A DNA stretch of 64,000 nt, taken from Escherichia coli. GTDB taxonomy: Bacteria > Pseudomonadota > Gammaproteobacteria > Enterobacterales > Enterobacteriaceae. Positions 51,590 through 62,814 of this stretch are shown here, piece by piece. Both the position numbers and the translations under genes were made by a program. Each line of letters starts with the position of its first letter. Position 1 is the stretch's first letter. Location of the stretch: assembly GCF_001677475.2 (NCBI RefSeq), contig NZ_CP015229.1. One strand, 5' to 3'. The notes under the pieces were generated by a model. The model was not told the DNA's origin. It searched no databases and was given only the letters and a program-made list of their open reading frames with translations.

Positions 51590-51862
51590 ATGGAAATACG
51601 CGAAGGCCACAATAAATTTTACATAAATGACGAACAAGGCAAGCAAATCGCTGAAATTGTCTTTGTGCCGACCGGAGAGAATTTAGCGATTATCGAACAT
51701 ACCGATGTCGATGAAAGCCTGAAAGGGCAAGGGATTGGTAAACAGCTGGTTGCGAAAGTCGTGGAAAAAATGCGTCGGGAAAAACGAAAAATTATCCCAC
51801 TATGCCCATTTGCGAAACACGAATTTGATAAAACGCGGGAGTATGATGATATTCGCAGTTGA
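51590..51862 (+). CDS. yjdJ: GNAT-family acetyltransferase YjdJ
   Basis: 90-aa ORF with GNAT core motif QGIGKQLV. Confidence 0.8.
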
Positions 51863-52088
51863 TGGGAGAGTACAGATTCACGATATTTTTCATGCTCTCC
51901 GCGGTGTGATGCAGGAGAGCATCTGAAGGGTAGGGGGATGCACAAAGAATGGGCAGAGAGCGCGTTTTTTTGTCCCAAGTCATCCCCTTTACTGAGCAAA
52001 AAAAAGAATATCTCCTATATGAGAATCATCAATCGGGGTTAATAAGTTTTGCGTCCCCAGAGCGTTTAAAATTGATAGGAGTCATATT

Positions 52089-52385
52089 ATGGAAGGTAAA
52101 AACAAGTTCAATACTTATGTTGTTTCTTTTGATTATCCATCATCTTATTCCTCAGTGTTCTTAAGGTTAAGATCATTGATGTATGATATGAATTTCTCCT
52201 CTATCGTGGCTGATGAATATGGGATACCACGACAATTGAATGAAAATTCCTTCGCAATAACGACATCGTTAGCCGCAAGTGAAATCGAAGATTTAATCAG
52301 GCTTAAATGCTTAGACTTACCGGATATTGATTTTGACCTCAACATTATGACAGTTGATGACTATTTCCGTCAGTTTTACAAGTAG
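52089..52385 (+). CDS. ghoS: Type V antitoxin GhoS (sequence-specific endoribonuclease)
   Basis: 98-aa ORF MEGKNKFNTYVVSFDYPSSYSSVFLRLRSL..., directly upstream of ghoT. Confidence 0.85.
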   Translation: MEGKNKFNTYVVSFDYPSSYSSVFLRLRSLMYDMNFSSIVADEYGIPRQLNENSFAITTSLAASEIEDLIRLKCLDLPDIDFDLNIMTVDDYFRQFYK

Positions 52386-52412
52386 CCAGGAAGGATAAGA
52401 AGAACATAAAAA

Positions 52413-52586
52413 ATGGCACTATTCTCTAAAATATTAATTTTTTATGTGATTGGTGTGAACATATCCTTTGTCATTATCTGGTTTATCTCACATGAGAAAA
52501 CACATATTCGTTTACTTAGTGCATTCCTGGTCGGAATAACCTGGCCAATGAGTCTGCCTGTGGCATTACTTTTTTCTCTCTTTTAG
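52413..52586 (+). CDS. ghoT: Type V toxin GhoT (57-aa membrane-lytic peptide); absent from the ORF track
   Basis: Hand translation of atg gca cta ttc ... ttt tag gives MALFSKILIFYVIGVNISFVIIWFISHEKTHIRLLSAFLVGITWPMSLPVALLFSLF (two TM helices), 27 bp downstream of ghoS. Confidence 0.85.
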   Translation: MALFSKILIFYVIGVNISFVIIWFISHEKTHIRLLSAFLVGITWPMSLPVALLFSLF

Positions 52587-52704
52587 GAGCTGTAGTTGAG
52601 TGGACCCGCTGGTTATCTTGAAACGAAGCGTCTCTCCTCAAAACTGGATTTGCGGAACGACGAACGAAGCAGTCGCCTGACTGCTTCGTTCATTAAAGTG
52701 AAAT

Positions 52705-54222
52705 TTATTTCTGTGGGCGCATCGCCGGGAAGAGAATAACGTCGCGAATAGTATGACTGTTTGTAAACAGCATAATCATTCGGTCGATACCAATACCCAG
52801 ACCAGCGGTTGGCGGCAGACCATATTCCAGCGCAGTCACGTAATCTTCGTCATAGAACATGGCTTCGTCGTCACCTGCAGCTTTAGCGTTAACCTGTTCC
52901 TGGAAACGTTCAGCCTGATCTTCTGCATCGTTTAATTCGCTAAAACCATTACCGATTTCACGACCACCGATGAAGAATTCAAAACGGTCGGTGATTTCCG
53001 GGTTAACATCATTACGGCGCGCCAGCGGGGACACTTCTGCCGGATATTCCGTAATAAAGGTTGGCTGAATCAGATGTGCTTCTGCCACTTCATCAAAGAT
53101 CTCCGTAACAATACGTCCCAGACCCCAGCTTTTCTCTACCGTAATTCCGATAGATTCAGCTAATGCTTTAGCGGCATCAAAATTATCCAGGTCGGCCATA
53201 TCGGTTTCTGGACGATATTTTTTGATTGCTTCGCGCATGGTGAGTTTTTCAAACGGTTTGCCGAAATCAAACACATGCTCGCCATAAGTGACTTTAGTGG
53301 TACCCAGAACCTCTTGTGCCAGGGTGCGGAACAGTGACTCTGTCAGTTCAATCAAATCGTGGTAATCCGCATACGCCATGTAGAGTTCCATCATTGTGAA
53401 CTCAGGATTATGGCGAACAGAAATGCCTTCATTACGGAAGTTACGGTTGATTTCGAATACCCGTTCAAAACCGCCTACAACCAGACGTTTCAGATACAGC
53501 TCCGGCGCAATACGCAGGTACATATCTAAATCCAGAGCGTTATGATGGGTAATAAACGGGCGAGCAGATGCCCCACCTGGAATTACCTGCATCATCGGGG
53601 TTTCTACTTCCATAAAGCCGCGCGCGACCATGAACTGGCGGATAGCGGCCAGAATTTTTGAACGGACAACAAACGTTTGACGGGATTTATCGTTAGCGAT
53701 GAGGTCCAGATAACGTTGACGATAACGGACTTCCTGATCCTGCAGACCATGGAATTTATCTGGTAAAGGACGTAGTGCTTTTGTCAGCAGGCGCAACTCA
53801 GTACAGTGAATGGAAAGCTCACCCGTTTGCGTCTTAAACAGCGTACCGCGGGCACCGATAATGTCACCCAGATCCCATTTTTTAAACTGATCGTTATAAA
53901 CACCTTCTGGCAGGCTATCTCGTGCGACGTACAGTTGAATACGGCCACCGACATCCTGCAACGTTACAAAGGAGGCTTTCCCCATGATACGACGGGTCAT
54001 CATTCGGCCAGCAACCGAGACTTCAATGTTTAAGGATTCCAGTTCCTGGTTATCCTTCGCATCAAACTCTTCGTGCAACTGGTCAGAGGTATGGTCGCGG
54101 CGAAAATCATTGGGAAACGCCACACCTTGCTGACGTAGTGCCGCCAGCTTTTCGCGGCGATTTCTCAGTTCATCGTTAAAATCAATAGCCTCATTGGCTC
54201 CCCGTGTTTCTCGTTCAGACAT
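52705..54222 (-). CDS. lysU: Lysyl-tRNA synthetase, inducible isozyme
   Basis: ATG at 54222 gives MSE(R/Q)[30 protein letters not shown]... (505 aa); class II aaRS motifs. Confidence 0.92.
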
Positions 54223-54458
54223 TTTGGTTCCTCTAAATCCAGCTTTCAATTTAGCGTAGATAAAGAGACAGATCGGTACACTGTATTATCTGCCTCGACT
54301 ATTAATAACTCAGTTTATCTTATCGAAACTAACGCTTACCTCAAGTTGATATCACTAATAAATAACCATCAAAATGGTTTAAATGACTTATTAATCTCGA
54401 TTTATTAGTGTGATAAACTAAAAGTTAGTTTATTCATAACCAATTGTTTTTACGACAG

Positions 54459-55916
54459 TTAATCGTTGCTCTCCTGTATCATATTTGTCGGCGTGCTAAA
54501 CAGATAACGGGCAGCAAAGGCCAATACCACGATGATCGCGACACAAGCCAACGTCCACTCTCCCATCTGAGAAAAGAATCGCTGGTAAGCTGCAATTGCC
54601 ATTCCGCTAATTTGCGACTCTGTCGTCTGCTGTGCCACGACGCCTGCCAGCCAGTTGGCGACCGCGCCTGTTGCCAGCATATAAATACCGGTTAATACGC
54701 CAGACATTTTCAGACGCGTGATTTGCGCAATCGCCACCGGGTCAATAAAGAGTTCGGCAAAGCCCATTAGCGCCAGCCCGGATATCATCACGCCCATTGA
54801 CGCTTGACCGTCAGCCGCTGCATGTCGGGCATCAAATGCCAGCAACATAAAGCCACAAGCCATCAGCAATAAGCCAAAGGCAAACCTCAGCCAGACGCGC
54901 AATGTTGAGTTGCCGTGGCTTTCTGGCGACGCCAGCCAGGCCAGAACAACCCCAGCGAGCATCACCGCAATTGCGTTCACTGACTGGAATAGTGCAGTAG
55001 GTACTTCAATATTGAATGCCTGACGATTCACAAAGCGATCGATAAACAAACTGATGGTACTGCCGCCCTGTTGTGCCAGTACCCAGAACAACGTCCCGAC
55101 AAACATCAACAATACAATTTGCCAAAGAGCACGGCGGTGTTCGGGGAATTTGATCATCATGCGGGCAATGATTTGTGCGGCAATGAGGCAAACGATCGCC
55201 AGCAAATATCCCGACCAGTCGTTCTCCAGCAGCAGGGTAAAAAATACTGGGGCTAAACAGAGCATCACCACTAACCAGCTCCATACTGGTAAGGCAAATT
55301 TCACGCTAGTGAGCGCTTTCTTATCCATACTACGCGTGGACTGGAAATGACGATGACCGCTTAAGAAAATCAACAAACCGATAAACATGCCGCCACCCGC
55401 AAGGGCAAAGCCAACATGCCATCCATACCACTGAGCAGCCAGGCCGCAGGCGATGGGGGCGGCGATAGAACCGATATTGCCCGCAGCATACAGCAGCGAA
55501 AAACCGCCATCACGTCGATGATCGTTCTCGTCGTAGAGCTCGCCAAGCAAACAGCTGATGTTTGATTTGAATAAACCGTAGCCACAAATAATGATTGCCA
55601 GCGCCAGATACAGGCTAAAGGTTGAATTTGTATCAATGCCCAGCACTACATGGCCAAGGGTCATTAACAGCGCGCCGGCAATTACCGCAGTACGATTGCC
55701 GAGCAGGCGGTCGGCAAGCCAGCCGCCGAGAATAGGGGTAACGTAAACCAGAGATGCATATGCGCTGAACAGGCTGATGGCATGGTTATCATCAAAACCA
55801 AGCTGATGGGTGAGATAGAGAATGAGCAAGGCACGCATGCCGTAAAAACTGAAGTACTCCCAGATTTGGATCGCCACGATATAGTATATCGCGCGCGGCT
55901 GTGAGGGTGTTTTCAT
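54459..55916 (-). CDS. dtpC: Dipeptide/tripeptide:proton symporter DtpC (YjdL), POT family
   Basis: 485-aa 14-[41 protein letters not shown]... Confidence 0.92.
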
Positions 55917-55931
55917 GTGTTCTCCTTATGA

Positions 55932-55963
55932 GCAAAAAAGGGAAGTGGCAAGCCACTTCCCTT
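55932..55963 (-). terminator. Rho-independent terminator of the cadBA operon
   Basis: aagggaagtgg-caag-ccacttccctt stem followed on the minus strand by TTTTTTGC. Confidence 0.8.
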
Positions 55964-55974
55964 GTACGAGCTAA

Positions 55975-58122
55975 TTATTTTTTGCTTTCTTCTTTCAATA
56001 CTTTAACGGTATAGCGGCCATCAGCCTGACGGTATGCACCGTGAATATCGGTTTCAAAGCCCGGATAGTGAGCGCCGATTTCACACAGCATCTGCAGGAA
56101 CTCCAGAACCGGACGGCTTTCTTCGGTGATCATTTCTCCCGGCATTACCAGAGGAACTCCCGGCGGATACGGAAGGATCATATTGGCGTTAATACGACCG
56201 ACCATTTCGTCGAGGTAAACTTCTTCGGTCATACCGTGCAGCTCTTTCTGGAACGCAGCATACGGAGTCATTACCATCGTCGGCAGCACTTCAAATGCGC
56301 GATACATCAGATCCGGCAGATTGTGGTGAACAATCAGTTTGTGGATATTCTGAGCCAGTTCCTGAATACGCATGTTTTCATAGAATTCAGGATCTTCACG
56401 ATACAGAGACGGCAGCATGTTTTTCACACGCAGGTTCAGGTCGAACGCACGTTTGAAGTCAGTCAGAGCACGCAGCAGGCTCAGTGCTTTGGTCTTATCG
56501 ATACCGATGCTGAACAGGAACAGCAGGTTATACGGACCGGTTTTCTCAACAACGATGCCATGTTCGTCGAGGTATTTCGCCACGATGCTGGCCGGAATAC
56601 CAAAGTCGCTCATGGTGCCGTCTTTTTCCATCCCCGGAGTCAGCAGGGTGACTTTGATCGGGTCAAGATACATGTGCTCGTTATCGATGTTTTTGAAGCC
56701 GTGCCAGGTGCTGTCAGAACGCAGCGGCCAGCATTCAGTCGTATCGATATGATCCGGCTGCCAAACATCAAAGAACCAGCCATCAGATTCCGTTCTCAGA
56801 CGTTTGATCTCTTTACGGAATTTGATCGCACGTTCAATGGAACCGTTGATCAGACGCTTACCAGCATTACCTTTCATCATCGCCGCTGCGGTTTCAGTGG
56901 ACGCCACGATACCGTAGTGCGGAGAAGTGGTGGTGTGCATCATGTAGGCTTCGTTAAAGGTTTCTTCGTTTACGTCACCTTTAACGTGGATCATGGAAGC
57001 CTGAGAGAACGCCGCCAGCAGTTTGTGAGTAGACTGGGTTTCGTAAATCACTTTCCCTTCTACACGGCCACCGCTCATACCGCATTTACCTTCGTAAATC
57101 GGTGAGAAGTTGGTGTAAGGCACCCACGCGGAGTCAAAGTGGATGGATTTCACATCCAGTGTTTTCTTGATGAAGTCGGTGTTGTACAGCAGACCATCAT
57201 AGGTAGAGTTGGTAATTACAGCATGTACCGGCCAGGTTGCGTTTGGTGTTTCTTTCACGCGCTTAGCAATGGTAGCGTGCTGGAATTCACTCTGTGGGAT
57301 ACCACCAAGAATACCGTAAGCGTTACGGGTCGGGCGGAAATAGATTGGCGTAACATCGCTCATCATCATCAGGTGGGTCAGCGATTTGTGGCAGTTACGG
57401 TCAATCAGAATGGTGCTGCCTGCCGGAGCAGAGTACATACCAACAATTTTGTTCGCAGTGGAAGTACCGTTGGTCACCATGTAGCTGCGGTCTGCGTTAA
57501 AGACGCGAGCGATATACTGTTCTGCTTCTTTGTGTGGACCACTGTGATCCAGCAGAGAACCCAGTTCAGATACTGAAATGGAAATATCAGATTTCATGGT
57601 GTTCGGACCAAAGAAATCATAGAACAGGCTACCTACCGGGCTTTTCTGGAATGCAGTACCGCCCATGTGACCAGGAGTACAGAAAGTATATTTACCTTCA
57701 CGAACATATTTAAACAGTGCTTTGGTCAGCGGAGGCAGAATAGTGTTGATATATTCGTCAGTGGTCTGCTTGATCTTGTTAGCAATATCTTCAGCAGCAC
57801 CCAGCGCATATTCAAAGAAGCTAATCTGTAAACGCAGGTCATTCAGGCTTACATCGAGAGTGGAATACGTATTAGCGAACGCGTACAACGGCAGGTTCTC
57901 GTTCATTTTGCTAATTTCTTCGCACAGCTCGAGATTATATTTATCCCAGTCAAAAATAACGCCGCACAGACGCGCATTGTTTTCGATCAGTTTTAATAAG
58001 TCGTCACGGTCGTTCGGGTAAACAATCTGGAAGTTCAGACGTTCAAGCGCGCGATGAAGTTCACGGATGGGTTCTTCTTTAAAATAAACCCCCATGTGAT
58101 TCAATATTGCAATAACGTTCAT
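55975..58122 (-). CDS. cadA: Inducible lysine decarboxylase
   Basis: 715 aa from the ATG at 58122 (MNVIAILNHMGVYFKEEPIRELH...); PLP-lysine motif YETQSTHKLL; ORF-track start at 58161 is an extension. Confidence 0.95.
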   Translation of the reverse strand: MNVIAILNHMGVYFKEEPIRELHRALERLNFQIVYPNDRDDLLKLIENNARLCGVIFDWDKYNLELCEEISKMNENLPLYAFANTYSTLDVSLNDLRLQISFFEYALGAAEDIANKIKQTTDEYINTILPPLTKALFKYVREGKYTFCTPGHMGGTAFQKSPVGSLFYDFFGPNTMKSDISISVSELGSLLDHSGPHKEAEQYIARVFNADRSYMVTNGTSTANKIVGMYSAPAGSTILIDRNCHKSLTHLMMMSDVTPIYFRPTRNAYGILGGIPQSEFQHATIAKRVKETPNATWPVHAVITNSTYDGLLYNTDFIKKTLDVKSIHFDSAWVPYTNFSPIYEGKCGMSGGRVEGKVIYETQSTHKLLAAFSQASMIHVKGDVNEETFNEAYMMHTTTSPHYGIVASTETAAAMMKGNAGKRLINGSIERAIKFRKEIKRLRTESDGWFFDVWQPDHIDTTECWPLRSDSTWHGFKNIDNEHMYLDPIKVTLLTPGMEKDGTMSDFGIPASIVAKYLDEHGIVVEKTGPYNLLFLFSIGIDKTKALSLLRALTDFKRAFDLNLRVKNMLPSLYREDPEFYENMRIQELAQNIHKLIVHHNLPDLMYRAFEVLPTMVMTPYAAFQKELHGMTEEVYLDEMVGRINANMILPYPPGVPLVMPGEMITEESRPVLEFLQMLCEIGAHYPGFETDIHGAYRQADGRYTVKVLKEESKK

Positions 58123-58201
58123 AGTCATATCTCCAGGTAAAAAAGGCCCCTCCCAACACATGGGACAAAATGAAAGGAGGAGCCTCGGAAAATACTTTTA
58201 A

Positions 58202-59536
58202 TTAATGTGCGTTAGACGCTGTGTGGTTATCCATTGAGTGACTCTGGCGCTCGTGCATTTTGCGAGCGTAGAACATCAGGATAATCAGGCTGACGATGAA
58301 GGTACCTGCCAGCTCGAAGGAGCTTGCGCCCATTAGCGCGATGAAGCAGAACACGCAACCCAGTACAGAGCAGATCAGGCTGACAAAGTTGCGGATGTTA
58401 ACGCCTTCAAAACGAATCAGGTCAACGCAAGAGTAGAAGTACGGCAGCATAGTCAGCAGTACTGCGATACCGGTCAGTTCACCGAACAGGTCAGATGCTT
58501 TACCACCGGCAGAGTTCATCAGAGTGATGAGGATCATCAGGGCAGTCATTTTCACTGCAGCCAGCAGCAGACCTTTTTTCGGAATACCGTTGCTGTCGAC
58601 TTCACCATAAACTTTCGGGAAGTTACCGTCGTTAGCGGCACGTACACCTGCCTGGCCTACCAACATCATCCAGGAGCCCAGAGAAGTCAGGCACGCAAAG
58701 GCGGTGAATGCAGAAACCAGCGGCGCAGCCCAGTTACCGAGGATAGTTGAAGCACTGATTGCAAACGGAGCACCGGAAGCCGCCATTACAGAAGACGGAT
58801 ACATACCGGAAAGCACCTGAGTCGCAGCGATGTAAACAATACCTGCTAAACCAGTACCCAGCATGGTTGCCAGCGGAACGGTACGTTTCGGGTTTTTAAC
58901 CATACCAGTACTTACAGCTGCGGATTCAACACCCACGAAGGCCCACAGGCAGAGCAGAATACTTTTAATGATCGCATGACCATCGGTGGTATCCGCAGTA
59001 TTCCAGTTAGCAGCATAAGTCGCAGCATCAAACCAATGCCAGCCAACAATAGCTGTCATAACCACAGGAATAAGAACCAGCACCAGACCAATAGTGGTTA
59101 AACGGCTTACCCAGGTACCGCCGAGCATATTTACAAAGGTAAATACCCAGACGATAGCAATACAGGCGATACCCGCCGGAACAGGATCATTTAATACTGG
59201 GAAGAAGGTGGAAAGATAAGATACAGCGGTAATACCAATCGCCAGGTTACCAATCCAGTTAGCATGGTAATAAAGAACACCTGTCTGAAAACCAAATGCA
59301 GGAGAAATTTCTCCGGCATAAGCAATTGGGCCACCTTGTTGCGGGTTTTTTGTTGCCAGTCGGGCATATACATACGCCAGCGACATTGCACCAATAATAG
59401 AGATAATCCAACCCCAGATAGCAATACCACCGATACTTGCTAGGTTCGCAGGTAATAATGCAATACCGCTCCCCATCATATTACCGGCAACAACACCGGT
59501 ACAGGCAAATAGCCCGATCTTCTTGGCAGAACTCAT
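58202..59536 (-). CDS. cadB: Lysine:cadaverine antiporter (APC family)
   Basis: 444-aa ORF MSSAKKIGLFACTGVVAGNMMGSGIALLPANLA... Confidence 0.95.
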   Translation of the reverse strand: MSSAKKIGLFACTGVVAGNMMGSGIALLPANLASIGGIAIWGWIISIIGAMSLAYVYARLATKNPQQGGPIAYAGEISPAFGFQTGVLYYHANWIGNLAIGITAVSYLSTFFPVLNDPVPAGIACIAIVWVFTFVNMLGGTWVSRLTTIGLVLVLIPVVMTAIVGWHWFDAATYAANWNTADTTDGHAIIKSILLCLWAFVGVESAAVSTGMVKNPKRTVPLATMLGTGLAGIVYIAATQVLSGMYPSSVMAASGAPFAISASTILGNWAAPLVSAFTAFACLTSLGSWMMLVGQAGVRAANDGNFPKVYGEVDSNGIPKKGLLLAAVKMTALMILITLMNSAGGKASDLFGELTGIAVLLTMLPYFYSCVDLIRFEGVNIRNFVSLICSVLGCVFCFIALMGASSFELAGTFIVSLIILMFYARKMHERQSHSMDNHTASNAH

Positions 59537-59901
59537 GCTCTTCTCCTAATTTCATTTTTGAATTTGGAGTCCGGGTCATGATGTATAACTATTTCCTGAC
59601 CAGACCAAACTGGCGCTAAGATTACTCACGAAAAAAGGATTAATCCTAAAGATTAGGTGAAATAACACAAAAGTTTCTGTAAGTGAGAACTTGAGGTTTT
59701 TTATTAACACATCAGGATCGCAAGTTGATATCATGAAAAGATAAACATTCAATGTTTACAATAGATTGCGTGACGTCTTCTGGTTAAATTTATGTAATAA
59801 AAATTATGCGGCAAATAAATTGCCGCAACATATTATACCAATAAAAACATACAAAAACTCAACAACAAATATTCCCGGGCATGAATCAACCCGGGATTTG
59901 C
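59537..59901 (-). promoter_or_regulatory. Pcad promoter/operator region
   Basis: 365-bp AT-rich spacer between the cadC stop and cadB start; known to hold the CadC binding sites and H-NS-bound DNA. Site boundaries not resolved. Confidence 0.55.
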
Positions 59902-61440
59902 TTATTCTGAAGCGAGAAATTTGTCGAGATAAGGTACAACATAAGGAACAGAAGTCTGGAATATACCATTTTCAATCCAGTAAAGGGTGTTTGCCCCTGG
60001 GCGTAAATTAAAGGCGGTGAGATATGCATCAGCTGCTTCCCGGTTCATCCCCTTCATTTCATAAACCTTGCCAAGCAACACATAATTTAGCCAGGACATT
60101 TCAAGATCAATGCCAGTATTTATCGCCTGGTAAGACTCATCTGTTTTACCTTTTACCAGAGCACTGACCGCTTTTATTTGATATATAATGGACAGGTTAT
60201 TCAATTCCGGTAGTGTAACAATGTTATTTATTTCTGTGTTCAGTGCTGCTAATTGTTTTTCATCCAAAGGATGTTGAGAATGGCGCACGATATCAACTAA
60301 TGCTTTTTCTGCTCTCGCGTAGGTAAATTCTGGGGATGATTGAACAATCTCACCTAATAATTCACTGGCACGATTCAATGATTTATCATCGCCATGCAGT
60401 AAATAATCATGTGCCTGATAAAAATTAGTTAATAACGCACCACGATGAGGCAAAATTTGCTGGAGCATCTCCTGCATTCGTTGTGGCCACGGTTGGTTTA
60501 ACGCTTTTGATAAACTCTCCAGTAAATCATTTTGAATCGCCAGCTGATTACCGTTAGTGATGACATAACGTTTATCCAGCATGGTTGAACCATCTGCATT
60601 GTCTACCAATTTTACCGACATAAAGCATTGTTGAGCACGGTATTGGCGCTGATTAACAAACGCAATAGATAATGTTTTACCGGAACTGCTCGGTTCATCA
60701 ATGTTGTAGTTGATTTTGTCATGCACCATAAAGGTGGAGAAGGTGTTAAGTGATGTCGCCACCAAATCACCCACACCTATCGCGTAAGAGAGCTGATATG
60801 GGGAACTCCAGCTGTTACAACTCTTATTCACCATATTAATGTCAATATCGCGTGGATTGAGCAAAATACGCGATTTGCTCATCGGAAGACGTGTATCAAG
60901 ACTTGAAAACGCTACCAGTGCTACACAGATACCTAACGACAACAGGAAAAAAAACCATACCCAAAAGGTAGTGAATCGTTTGCTTTTAACTGGGGATTGT
61001 TCAGGTGGCGTTGCGGTGTTTTGAATGTTAAGACTGTGGGAGGGAGAATCTGTGGCAGGAACCGCCTCTGGTATAGGGGGAGGCGAAGATAGCATTATTT
61101 CCTCTCCCTCTTCTTCGCTGTACCAGATAACCGGCACCATTAATTTATAGCCGCGCTTTGGTACAGTAGCGATATAGACAGGACTATCTTCATCATTATC
61201 TTTTAATGACTTACGTAGTTCTGAGATACTCTGCGTCACAACGTGATTGGTGACAATACTTCTCTTCCAGACATTATCGATAAGTTCATCCCTGCTAAGT
61301 ACTTCGCCACTGTGTTGAGCAAAGAAAACCAGAAGATCGATTAATCTCGGCTCAAGGGTAAGTTGACGCCCATTGCGGCTAATTTGGTTTATGGACGGAG
61401 TAACAAGCCATTCGCCAACGCGAACTACAGGTTGTTGCAT
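59902..61440 (-). CDS. cadC: Membrane-integrated ToxR-like transcriptional activator CadC
   Basis: 512-aa ORF MQQPVVRVGEWLVTPSINQISRNGRQLTLEPRLIDLL...; winged-helix N-terminus, one TM helix, periplasmic sensor. Confidence 0.95.
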   Translation of the reverse strand: MQQPVVRVGEWLVTPSINQISRNGRQLTLEPRLIDLLVFFAQHSGEVLSRDELIDNVWKRSIVTNHVVTQSISELRKSLKDNDEDSPVYIATVPKRGYKLMVPVIWYSEEEGEEIMLSSPPPIPEAVPATDSPSHSLNIQNTATPPEQSPVKSKRFTTFWVWFFFLLSLGICVALVAFSSLDTRLPMSKSRILLNPRDIDINMVNKSCNSWSSPYQLSYAIGVGDLVATSLNTFSTFMVHDKINYNIDEPSSSGKTLSIAFVNQRQYRAQQCFMSVKLVDNADGSTMLDKRYVITNGNQLAIQNDLLESLSKALNQPWPQRMQEMLQQILPHRGALLTNFYQAHDYLLHGDDKSLNRASELLGEIVQSSPEFTYARAEKALVDIVRHSQHPLDEKQLAALNTEINNIVTLPELNNLSIIYQIKAVSALVKGKTDESYQAINTGIDLEMSWLNYVLLGKVYEMKGMNREAADAYLTAFNLRPGANTLYWIENGIFQTSVPYVVPYLDKFLASE

Positions 61441-62020
61441 AATAGAAACTCATTCGAAAAGGGAATGATGCAATGATAATTGCCACAACCTATTTTTACC
61501 ATCTATAGATGGGTTTATTTACATATTATTGGTGAATGCAAGACGTTATTTTTACCAGCGATAAACTTCTTGATTACATAGTATTACGAAAGGATTTTAC
61601 TGAGAACCAGAAGTAATATTCCTTACCATCAAAATTCATCATCTTTGCCAAAGAAAAATGTTCAGAAAATAATCCATGGAAAATTGTCCGGAGCGCTTAC
61701 TATTTTAATGGATTGTTAGTCTTTGCATGAGCAAGCGGACTGATAAATTTCTCTTTGTTCTCATTCAGAAAATCTCATCAGTCGCCGTTCAGACCGGTGT
61801 TGTGCTTTATGGATGCGTTACGCTCCTGATGACGTCATTTGACGTTCAACAGCATCACGGGGCCGCACGACATTTCACGTCAGTCAGTGCTATCGCTCAG
61901 GAACACATTTCCCCGAATTGGGATCTACCCGCAAAATGCTGGTGATGTGGGGAGAATCTGGTTGAGTTCGGTAGAATTGATTTGTAGGCAGAACGCTTAA
62001 ATCGTGGCGTCCTGAAACGA

Positions 62021-62048
62021 AAAACGGACCTCCGTGGAGGTCCGTTTA
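62021..62048 (-). terminator. Rho-independent terminator of pheU
   Basis: cggacctcc-gtgg-aggtccg hairpin directly 3' of the tRNA, followed by a T-run on the minus strand. Confidence 0.8.
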
Positions 62049-62056
62049 TATGAATT

Positions 62057-62132
62057 TGGTGCCCGGACTCGGAATCGAACCAAGGACACGGGGATTTTCA
62101 ATCCCCTGCTCTACCGACTGAGCTATCCGGGC
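62057..62132 (-). tRNA. pheU: tRNA-Phe (anticodon GAA)
   Basis: Reverse complement GCCCGGATAGCTCAGTCGGTAGAGCAGGGGATTGAAAATCCCCGTGTCCTTGGTTCGATTCCGAGTCCGGGCACCA: 76 nt, anticodon loop ATTGAAAAT, TPsiC GGTTCGATTCC, encoded CCA. Confidence 0.97.
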
Positions 62133-62238
62133 AACGGGGCGCATTAAACCGTAATCTGCACATCTCGTCAACCTAATTTCAGTAAAAGCGATTCAACTGC
62201 TTAAGATTGCGGCAAATCGCTACTTTTCTGTGTTTCTG

Positions 62239-62814
62239 TCAGGTCAGTGCGCCACCCTGGCGGCAGCGAGCGAAGCGCAGGATATCTTCTGCCAGCCGAT
62301 GTGCGGTGTCGACATCCGCCTGGCTACGATTCACCAGCATTCGGCTTAAACAGCCTTCCAGCACCAGTTCCATCTGCTTTGCTACCATCGCCGGATCGTC
62401 AACTTCCAGCGTGGTTAACAGTTCGTGGGTGAAATCGTAGGCCGCGCTTTTTTGCTGATCGGCCAGTTGATGAATAGGGTGGCCAGGATCGGGATAAAAC
62501 GTACAGGCAGCGATAAATAGACAGCCCGGATAGCGGTTGTTTTTAACGCACTCCGATAACGCCTGATAACGTGCCAGCAGCTTTTGTTCGGCGGTTTGCG
62601 TTTCGTCCAGCATCAGCTGACGACGCCAGACATCTATCTGTTGGCTAAGATAACGCAGCGCATCGTAGAGGATTGCCTCTTTGTCTGGCCAGAAGCGGCG
62701 CAGCTCGTCCAGTGGATAATCCACACGTTCAGCAACCATCTCCAGCGTGGTGTTGGCAATCCCTTGTAATTCTAATAATTTCAGGGCTTCTCCCAGTACA
62801 TCTTCACGTTGCAC
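62239..62814 (-). CDS. yjdC: TetR-family transcriptional regulator YjdC
   Basis: ORF 62239..62838 with N-terminal TetR HTH; likely GTG start giving 191 aa; start uncertain by 8 codons. Confidence 0.8.

Follow-up and report, generated by a model that had tools for sequence, protein, structure and literature searches.

The pheU island site has been defined as the interval between yjdC and cadC (PMC7686366; bioRxiv 10.1101/549998), and the islands at pheU and at pheV have one integrase type in common (PMC7686366; PMC11537424). The attB core of these islands is the last 23 nt of pheU. In occupied genomes this 23-nt 3' end recurs as attR. Besides the islands themselves, a relic is on record at this place: in K-12 MG1655 the pseudogene yjdQ (b4654) is annotated at 4362191-4362353, which corresponds to 61697-61859 of the DNA studied here, and PGAP labels part of the spacer as a frameshifted tyrosine recombinase pseudogene. 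A literature search on "yjdQ" returned no papers.

Here we report the analysis of the window, that is, a whole stretch of 64,000 nucleotides from an Escherichia coli genome (contig NZ_CP015229.1), whose right end is the E. coli cad-pheU region with all named genes on the minus strand: cadA (55975-58161), cadB (58202-59536), cadC (59902-61440), pheU (62057-62132), and then yjdC/dicD from 62239, followed by dsbD. The pheU gene, a tRNA-Phe(GAA) found by ARAGORN and by the Rfam tRNA model (68 bits), is complete, with its 3' end (attB) intact, and an Rfam scan of 61300-62300 at a permissive E-value recovered this tRNA alone. The spacer between pheU and cadC, 61441-62056, is exactly 616 bp long and has a G+C content of 40.3%, compared with 51.6% for the whole window, which bears out the short AT-rich gap described in an earlier note on this DNA.

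The spacer has the same locus and strand as in K-12 and is 98% identical to it, and the remnant inside it is already known as yjdQ and near-universal in E. coli. The K-12 annotation covers the C-terminal piece alone, whereas here the leader, the first 11 codons and a 131-bp arm are recognised too, so that the scar occupies about 360 bp between the tRNA and the end of the integrase stop codon. We hold it to be very nearly certain that an ancient P4-type (CP4-57-like) island, integrated at the 3' end of pheU, left the spacer as its scar. Directly observed on this point are the homology, the junction left by the deletion, its presence in several lineages and the frequencies in the population.

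An integrase relic beside pheU

The homology surfaced only when the spacer was aligned to one specific intact integrase, WP_001218795.1, a protein of 421 aa with the domains Arm-DNA-bind_3, Phage_int_M and Phage_integrase, encoded beside pheU in the APEC strain E14033 (locus L007). Directly 3' of the tRNA lies an island-derived arm (61926-62056, minus strand), which is identical at 122 of 131 positions (93%) to the stretch between tRNA and integrase of this intact pheU island, or 96% when the tRNA is included, and 90% identical to that of a second intact pheU island. The arm holds the intrinsic terminator of pheU, with a stem at 62047-62022 followed by a T-tract; in the terminator scan the hairpin has an 11-bp stem with 6 GC pairs and starts 10 nt past the tRNA, and the arm probably serves as the terminator of pheU. 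The same pheU-side arm is found beside the integrases of modern islands (loci L006 and L007) and also beside the scar, outside attR (locus L061); since an incoming island duplicates the core only, an arm present at both places has to be DNA of the element. In Salmonella, Kosakonia and Citrobacter pheU also follows yjdC, and the spacer DNA, arm included, is missing downstream of it, in agreement with such an origin.

Next to the arm, at 61861-61925 on the minus strand, come relics of the 5' leader of the integrase gene and of its codons 1-11; these codons (61893-61861) read IALTDVKCRAA, with the start codon changed from ATG to ATA. On the window alone this match is weak (tblastn E 0.13; blastn 20/23 nt around the start codon), and the assignment is secure because of the copies in sister lineages. 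At about 61860 codon 11 is fused directly to codon ~355, so that codons ~12-354 (~345 of 421, about 1.04 kb) are missing from the integrase gene. The rest, 61697-61860 on the minus strand, carries codons ~355-420 and the stop codons, corresponds to K-12 yjdQ (b4654), and was found by both tblastn and blastn. Within it the codons 359-391 (RDAVERQM...ERRLM) were located by tblastn at 61859-61776, and the codons 397-420, read in another frame as DFLNENKEKFISPLAHAKTNNPLK, at 61774-61703, followed by TAG TAA. This C-terminal part matches WP_001218795.1 with a summed tblastn E of 2e-10 and a blastn E of 5e-15, and is about 80% identical to the intact gene over aligned bases, or 66% counting gaps. 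In addition, one 43-nt match was found by blastn in a phage collection, inside a Salmonella integrase gene adjacent to leuX.

The position of the relic is that of the P4-type integrases (intP4 of GI-pheV/GI-pheU; CP4-57-like), which lie at the same place and in the same orientation 3' of tRNA-Phe; the arm of the relic is homologous to theirs and its terminal codons are collinear with theirs. The relic is on the same strand as the tRNA and roughly 200 bp off: its start codon at 61893 sits 164 bp from the tRNA 3' end, as against 198 bp in the intact island, and this shortfall is due to a leader deletion which is absent in "E. coli" SCPM-O-B-8794 (locus L017). All three homology segments are collinear, with the order, the strand and the spacing from the tRNA being correct. 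Unlike the P4-type integrases, the relic is without ~345 of 421 codons, its start codon and the catalytic Tyr, and its frame is broken. It is frameshifted and carries deletions of 16 nt and 14 nt, the former of which, common to E. coli and Escherichia sp. E1V33, removed the codons of GVRAAY including the catalytic Tyr, so the tyrosine of the RAAY motif is not retained; an open frame covering the three domains is absent as well. Such a relic is unable to act as a recombinase, and the scar as a whole is without recombinase function.

A course of events that fits these pieces may be proposed. A P4-type island would have entered the 3' end of pheU in an ancestor of the Escherichia lineages compared here, and what survives of it is the tRNA-proximal arm, the integrase leader with the first 11 codons, and the last ~65 codons. 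One internal deletion of ~1.04 kb took the arm-binding domain, the central domain and most of the catalytic domain. The inactivation was then finished by minor lesions, namely the change of ATG to ATA, frameshifts, and short deletions with which the catalytic Tyr codon was lost. The attB core of pheU is still intact, so newer islands of the same family can integrate there and push the scar outward.

The opposite reading, that the spacer is plain intergenic DNA whose attB was never occupied and whose similarity to an integrase arose by chance, has a few observations on its side, and we give it almost no credence. No direct repeat bounds the region, as the earlier note had said: the last 14-30 nt of the tRNA, searched on both strands of the 64-kb window, have no second copy there, and allowing 6 mismatches in 23 nt or 9 in 30 nt recovers none in the 64 kb. 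The far end of the old island therefore cannot be placed. Likewise the Pfam HMMs give no match in the six-frame translations of the spacer, and about 96% of E. coli genomes have the region. However, the Pfam HMMs miss the relic because it is too short and too frameshifted for them, and chance similarity does not account for three collinear segments in correct order, strand and spacing from the tRNA, for an arm that is common to modern islands and missing in other genera, or for the existence of a curated pseudogene annotation. Arm and integrase relics together fill 61697-62056, so element-derived DNA does lie beside the tRNA. The integrase homology, the alignment of SCPM-O-B-8794 described below and the K-12 annotation already refute a never-occupied site.

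The scar reading also settles what the earlier note had left as a choice, a site either unoccupied or holding a degraded remnant. The remnant half stands, on the integrase homology and yjdQ, and "unoccupied" holds in the functional sense only, that of an intact attB without a working island. A remnant had been expected to show both a direct repeat of the tRNA end and integrase homology, and only the latter is found; plain intergenic DNA had been expected to lack integrase similarity, which the tblastn and blastn matches contradict. The note was right that neither strand has a frame of integrase length, and missed the homology, which is short and frameshifted and was not visible to its reader.

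As to the 72-aa ORF listed in the earlier note, it exists at 61727-61945 on the plus strand, with an ATG start, and runs antisense across the integrase relic. That it encodes a real small protein appears extremely improbable to us. The frame is intact, with its ATG, in the window, in K-12 and in E1V33, yet it is antisense to a decaying pseudogene and is broken by stops or frameshifts in three sister lineages (E. whittamii, MOD1-EC7003 and SCPM-O-B-8794), which marks it as spurious. It finds no family match in Pfam and is annotated neither in K-12 nor by PGAP, and the one promoter-like match in its vicinity, on the plus strand, does not exceed what shuffling yields. It had rightly been called unsupported, and should not be annotated as a gene.

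Age of the scar and occupied pheU sites

The deletion junction is common to the window and to E1V33, E. whittamii, MOD1-EC7003 and SCPM-O-B-8794, i.e. to five Escherichia lineages. As four sister lineages have it, the internal deletion is older than their divergence from E. coli, and the scar is ancient. The four have each since acquired lesions of their own. All of them keep the ATG start, and the two that keep the 16-nt segment read D where Y is expected. As to the N-terminal part, the copy of SCPM-O-B-8794 keeps 23 extra nt of integrase leader; its alignment starts at the tRNA, runs without a break up to codon ~8 (E 1e-109, with 88% identity over 297 nt) and resumes at codon ~354.

Taking the fourfold-degenerate sites of cadC, with identities of 0.79-0.86, as a neutral yardstick, the integrase relic (identity 0.69-0.93 between the window and the sister lineages) drifts at a roughly neutral rate. 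The identity of the arm to the same lineages is 0.89-0.94, and the arm is under mild constraint, plausibly owing to the pheU terminator. Concerted evolution, in which recombination with incoming islands would keep the arm similar to theirs, was also considered and rejected: at 90-93% identity, the arms of modern islands are no closer to the scar arm than the scars of sister species are.

In the population as a whole, at least 80% of the spacer is found by megablast in 5218 of 5426 complete E. coli genomes (~96%), and scar, tRNA and yjdC are contiguous in 3736 of the 5426 (69%). The remaining ~31% are without the contiguous arrangement, and the cases sampled among them have a newer island at pheU. 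Break points were read from sampled rows of these non-contiguous genomes. With a break at 61926, pheU and the arm are followed by an intact or IS-split integrase (L006, L007); with a break at 62079, an island's distal genes and a 23-nt copy of the tRNA end come before the scar (L004, L061; MOD1-EC7003 is alike). In the genomes sampled, the scar has thus been displaced by newer islands of this family that integrated at attB. Compared with occupied pheU sites, in which a LEE or PAI island separates yjdC from cadC, the window has the same attB and a scar identical to the one lying just outside their 23-bp attR, and is without an intact integrase, identifiable cargo or attR. The complete tRNA 3' end in the window and the sampled islands at the same core both speak for a competent attB. 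The island at the occupied site of S19-141 exceeds 50 kb.

Several observations were made at such sites in passing. In E. coli 14EC047 (L004, 4001-4068), no more than 45 nt of the arm and a 22-nt repeat of the tRNA end survive, flanked on one side by a gene for a TcdA/TcdB-type glycosyltransferase toxin and on the other by the distal end of a further island; the remainder of the scar is missing at that place. In E. coli O145:H28 RM13514 (L006, 1403-3934) IS600 has split the integrase gene that a modern island carries beside pheU, an insertion that represents another route of inactivation for the integrases of pheU islands. Outside E. coli, Citrobacter sp. R56 (L060, 11805-15500) has a 45-nt repeat of the 3' part of tRNA-Phe 3.6 kb downstream of the tRNA-Phe past yjdC, which bounds a very small island with no similarity to the E. 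coli integrase.

The cadC side and the origin of the cad block

On the other side of the scar lies the near-universal cad block. The segment 61441-61509 (minus strand), presumably the cadC core promoter and 5' UTR, forms the left edge of the block cadC-cadB-cadA-dtpC-lysU. These 69 bp beside cadC have an identity of 0.96-0.97 across Escherichia lineages, showing strong constraint, and the ~70 bp nearest cadC are part of the cad gene block, outside the scar. The core promoter of cadC is likely to fall within the spacer. The promoter scan found no minus-strand match to the sigma-70 consensus for cadC, and its lone plus-strand match is within shuffle expectation, so the transcription start of cadC is left unassigned; the literature on the cadC promoter gave nothing usable about the start site.

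Between this segment and the integrase stop codon, an AT-rich spacer at 61510-61696 is present in E. coli and the four scar-bearing sister lineages, at one place per genome, with an identity of 0.80-0.91 to the sister lineages, i.e. near neutral. It shows no resemblance to what follows the gene of the intact integrase WP_001218795.1 downstream. At the boundary of the cad block and this Escherichia-specific spacer, a perfect palindrome, CCATCTATAGATGG, occurs at 61499-61512, followed by TAAAAAT; every Escherichia copy conserves it, and half of it is left at the E. albertii breakpoint. Furthermore, the heat-shock sigma section of a genomic-SELEX table lists a peak of a minor-sigma holoenzyme in the cadC-pheU spacer (PMC5493296); by our own conversion its K-12 position 4360430, in older coordinates, falls at about 61913 of the window, near the old integrase leader.

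The adjacency of scar and block raises the question of whether cadC-cadB-cadA-dtpC-lysU is itself the surviving cargo of the old pheU island, never lost and fixed by the gutting of the integrase. We consider this unlikely, at roughly one chance in a handful, and similarly doubtful is its corollary that the scar heads a domesticated island of 9 kb and is not the residue of a lost one. A scan of CadC relatives, with one genome per species (48 loci), finds cadC beside pheU in Escherichia only; about 40 other enterobacterial species have other cadC neighbours, with no tRNA-Phe within ~4 kb upstream. In a Klebsiella genome these five genes sit in another, unrelated chromosomal context, as a block of ~8.8 kb (L063, 6644-15574, against 52703-61478 of the window) with 78-79% nucleotide identity, and this homology stops sharply at 61478 and at 52703, i.e. 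~40 bp upstream of cadC and at the lysU stop codon. The tRNA, the integrase and the block follow one another as they would in an island, and the gap of 256 bp from the integrase stop to cadC is ordinary; cadC has a G+C content of about 40%; and retention of the cargo needs one deletion fewer than its loss.

Against the cargo reading, there is no distal repeat past lysU or elsewhere in the window, and cadB and cadA are of ordinary G+C content. Moreover, when the YjdC and DcuR neighbourhoods were compared in Salmonella, Kosakonia, Citrobacter and Trabulsiella, both sides of the region turned out to be synteny breakpoints, so ordinary rearrangement explains the adjacency of cadC and pheU equally well. 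Upstream of cadC, the DNA of Klebsiella, Raoultella and others stays homologous as far as 61478-61495 and that of E. albertii as far as 61509, beyond which E. albertii has other DNA; another island abuts the block at this point, which shows the junction to be prone to recombination. In E. albertii NBRC 107761 (L025, 192-4000) the element past 61509 encodes a 612-aa DUF927 protein, and its junction has no tRNA-Phe repeat, the contig ending before pheU. Two further observations concern the far side. Sharp dips in G+C content (35-38%) flank lysU at 51800-52800 and 54000-54600, the former just past the end of the Klebsiella-homologous block. In Citrobacter freundii (L064, 2223-8373) the synteny of adiA-dcuS with the window stops exactly at the dcuS start codon, making the dcuS side a rearrangement boundary as well, and upstream of dcuS are ~6 kb without called genes, with a tRNA-Glu inside, probably an rRNA operon.

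Implications for pheU and Escherichia

If the cad block did arrive as cargo, it would be a tidy case of an island domesticated into the core genome, in which a core acid-stress module of Escherichia came with a pheU island and was locked in by a 1-kb deletion. For the scar itself, what our analysis adds to the existing annotation is its full extent of ~360 bp and an internal deletion that is older than the split of E. coli from several sister Escherichia lineages. The practical value is small, and lies partly in a caution: integrase similarity or arm matches beside pheU are not in themselves a sign of an island. In this genome pheU is without an active island, and it is still a competent landing site.
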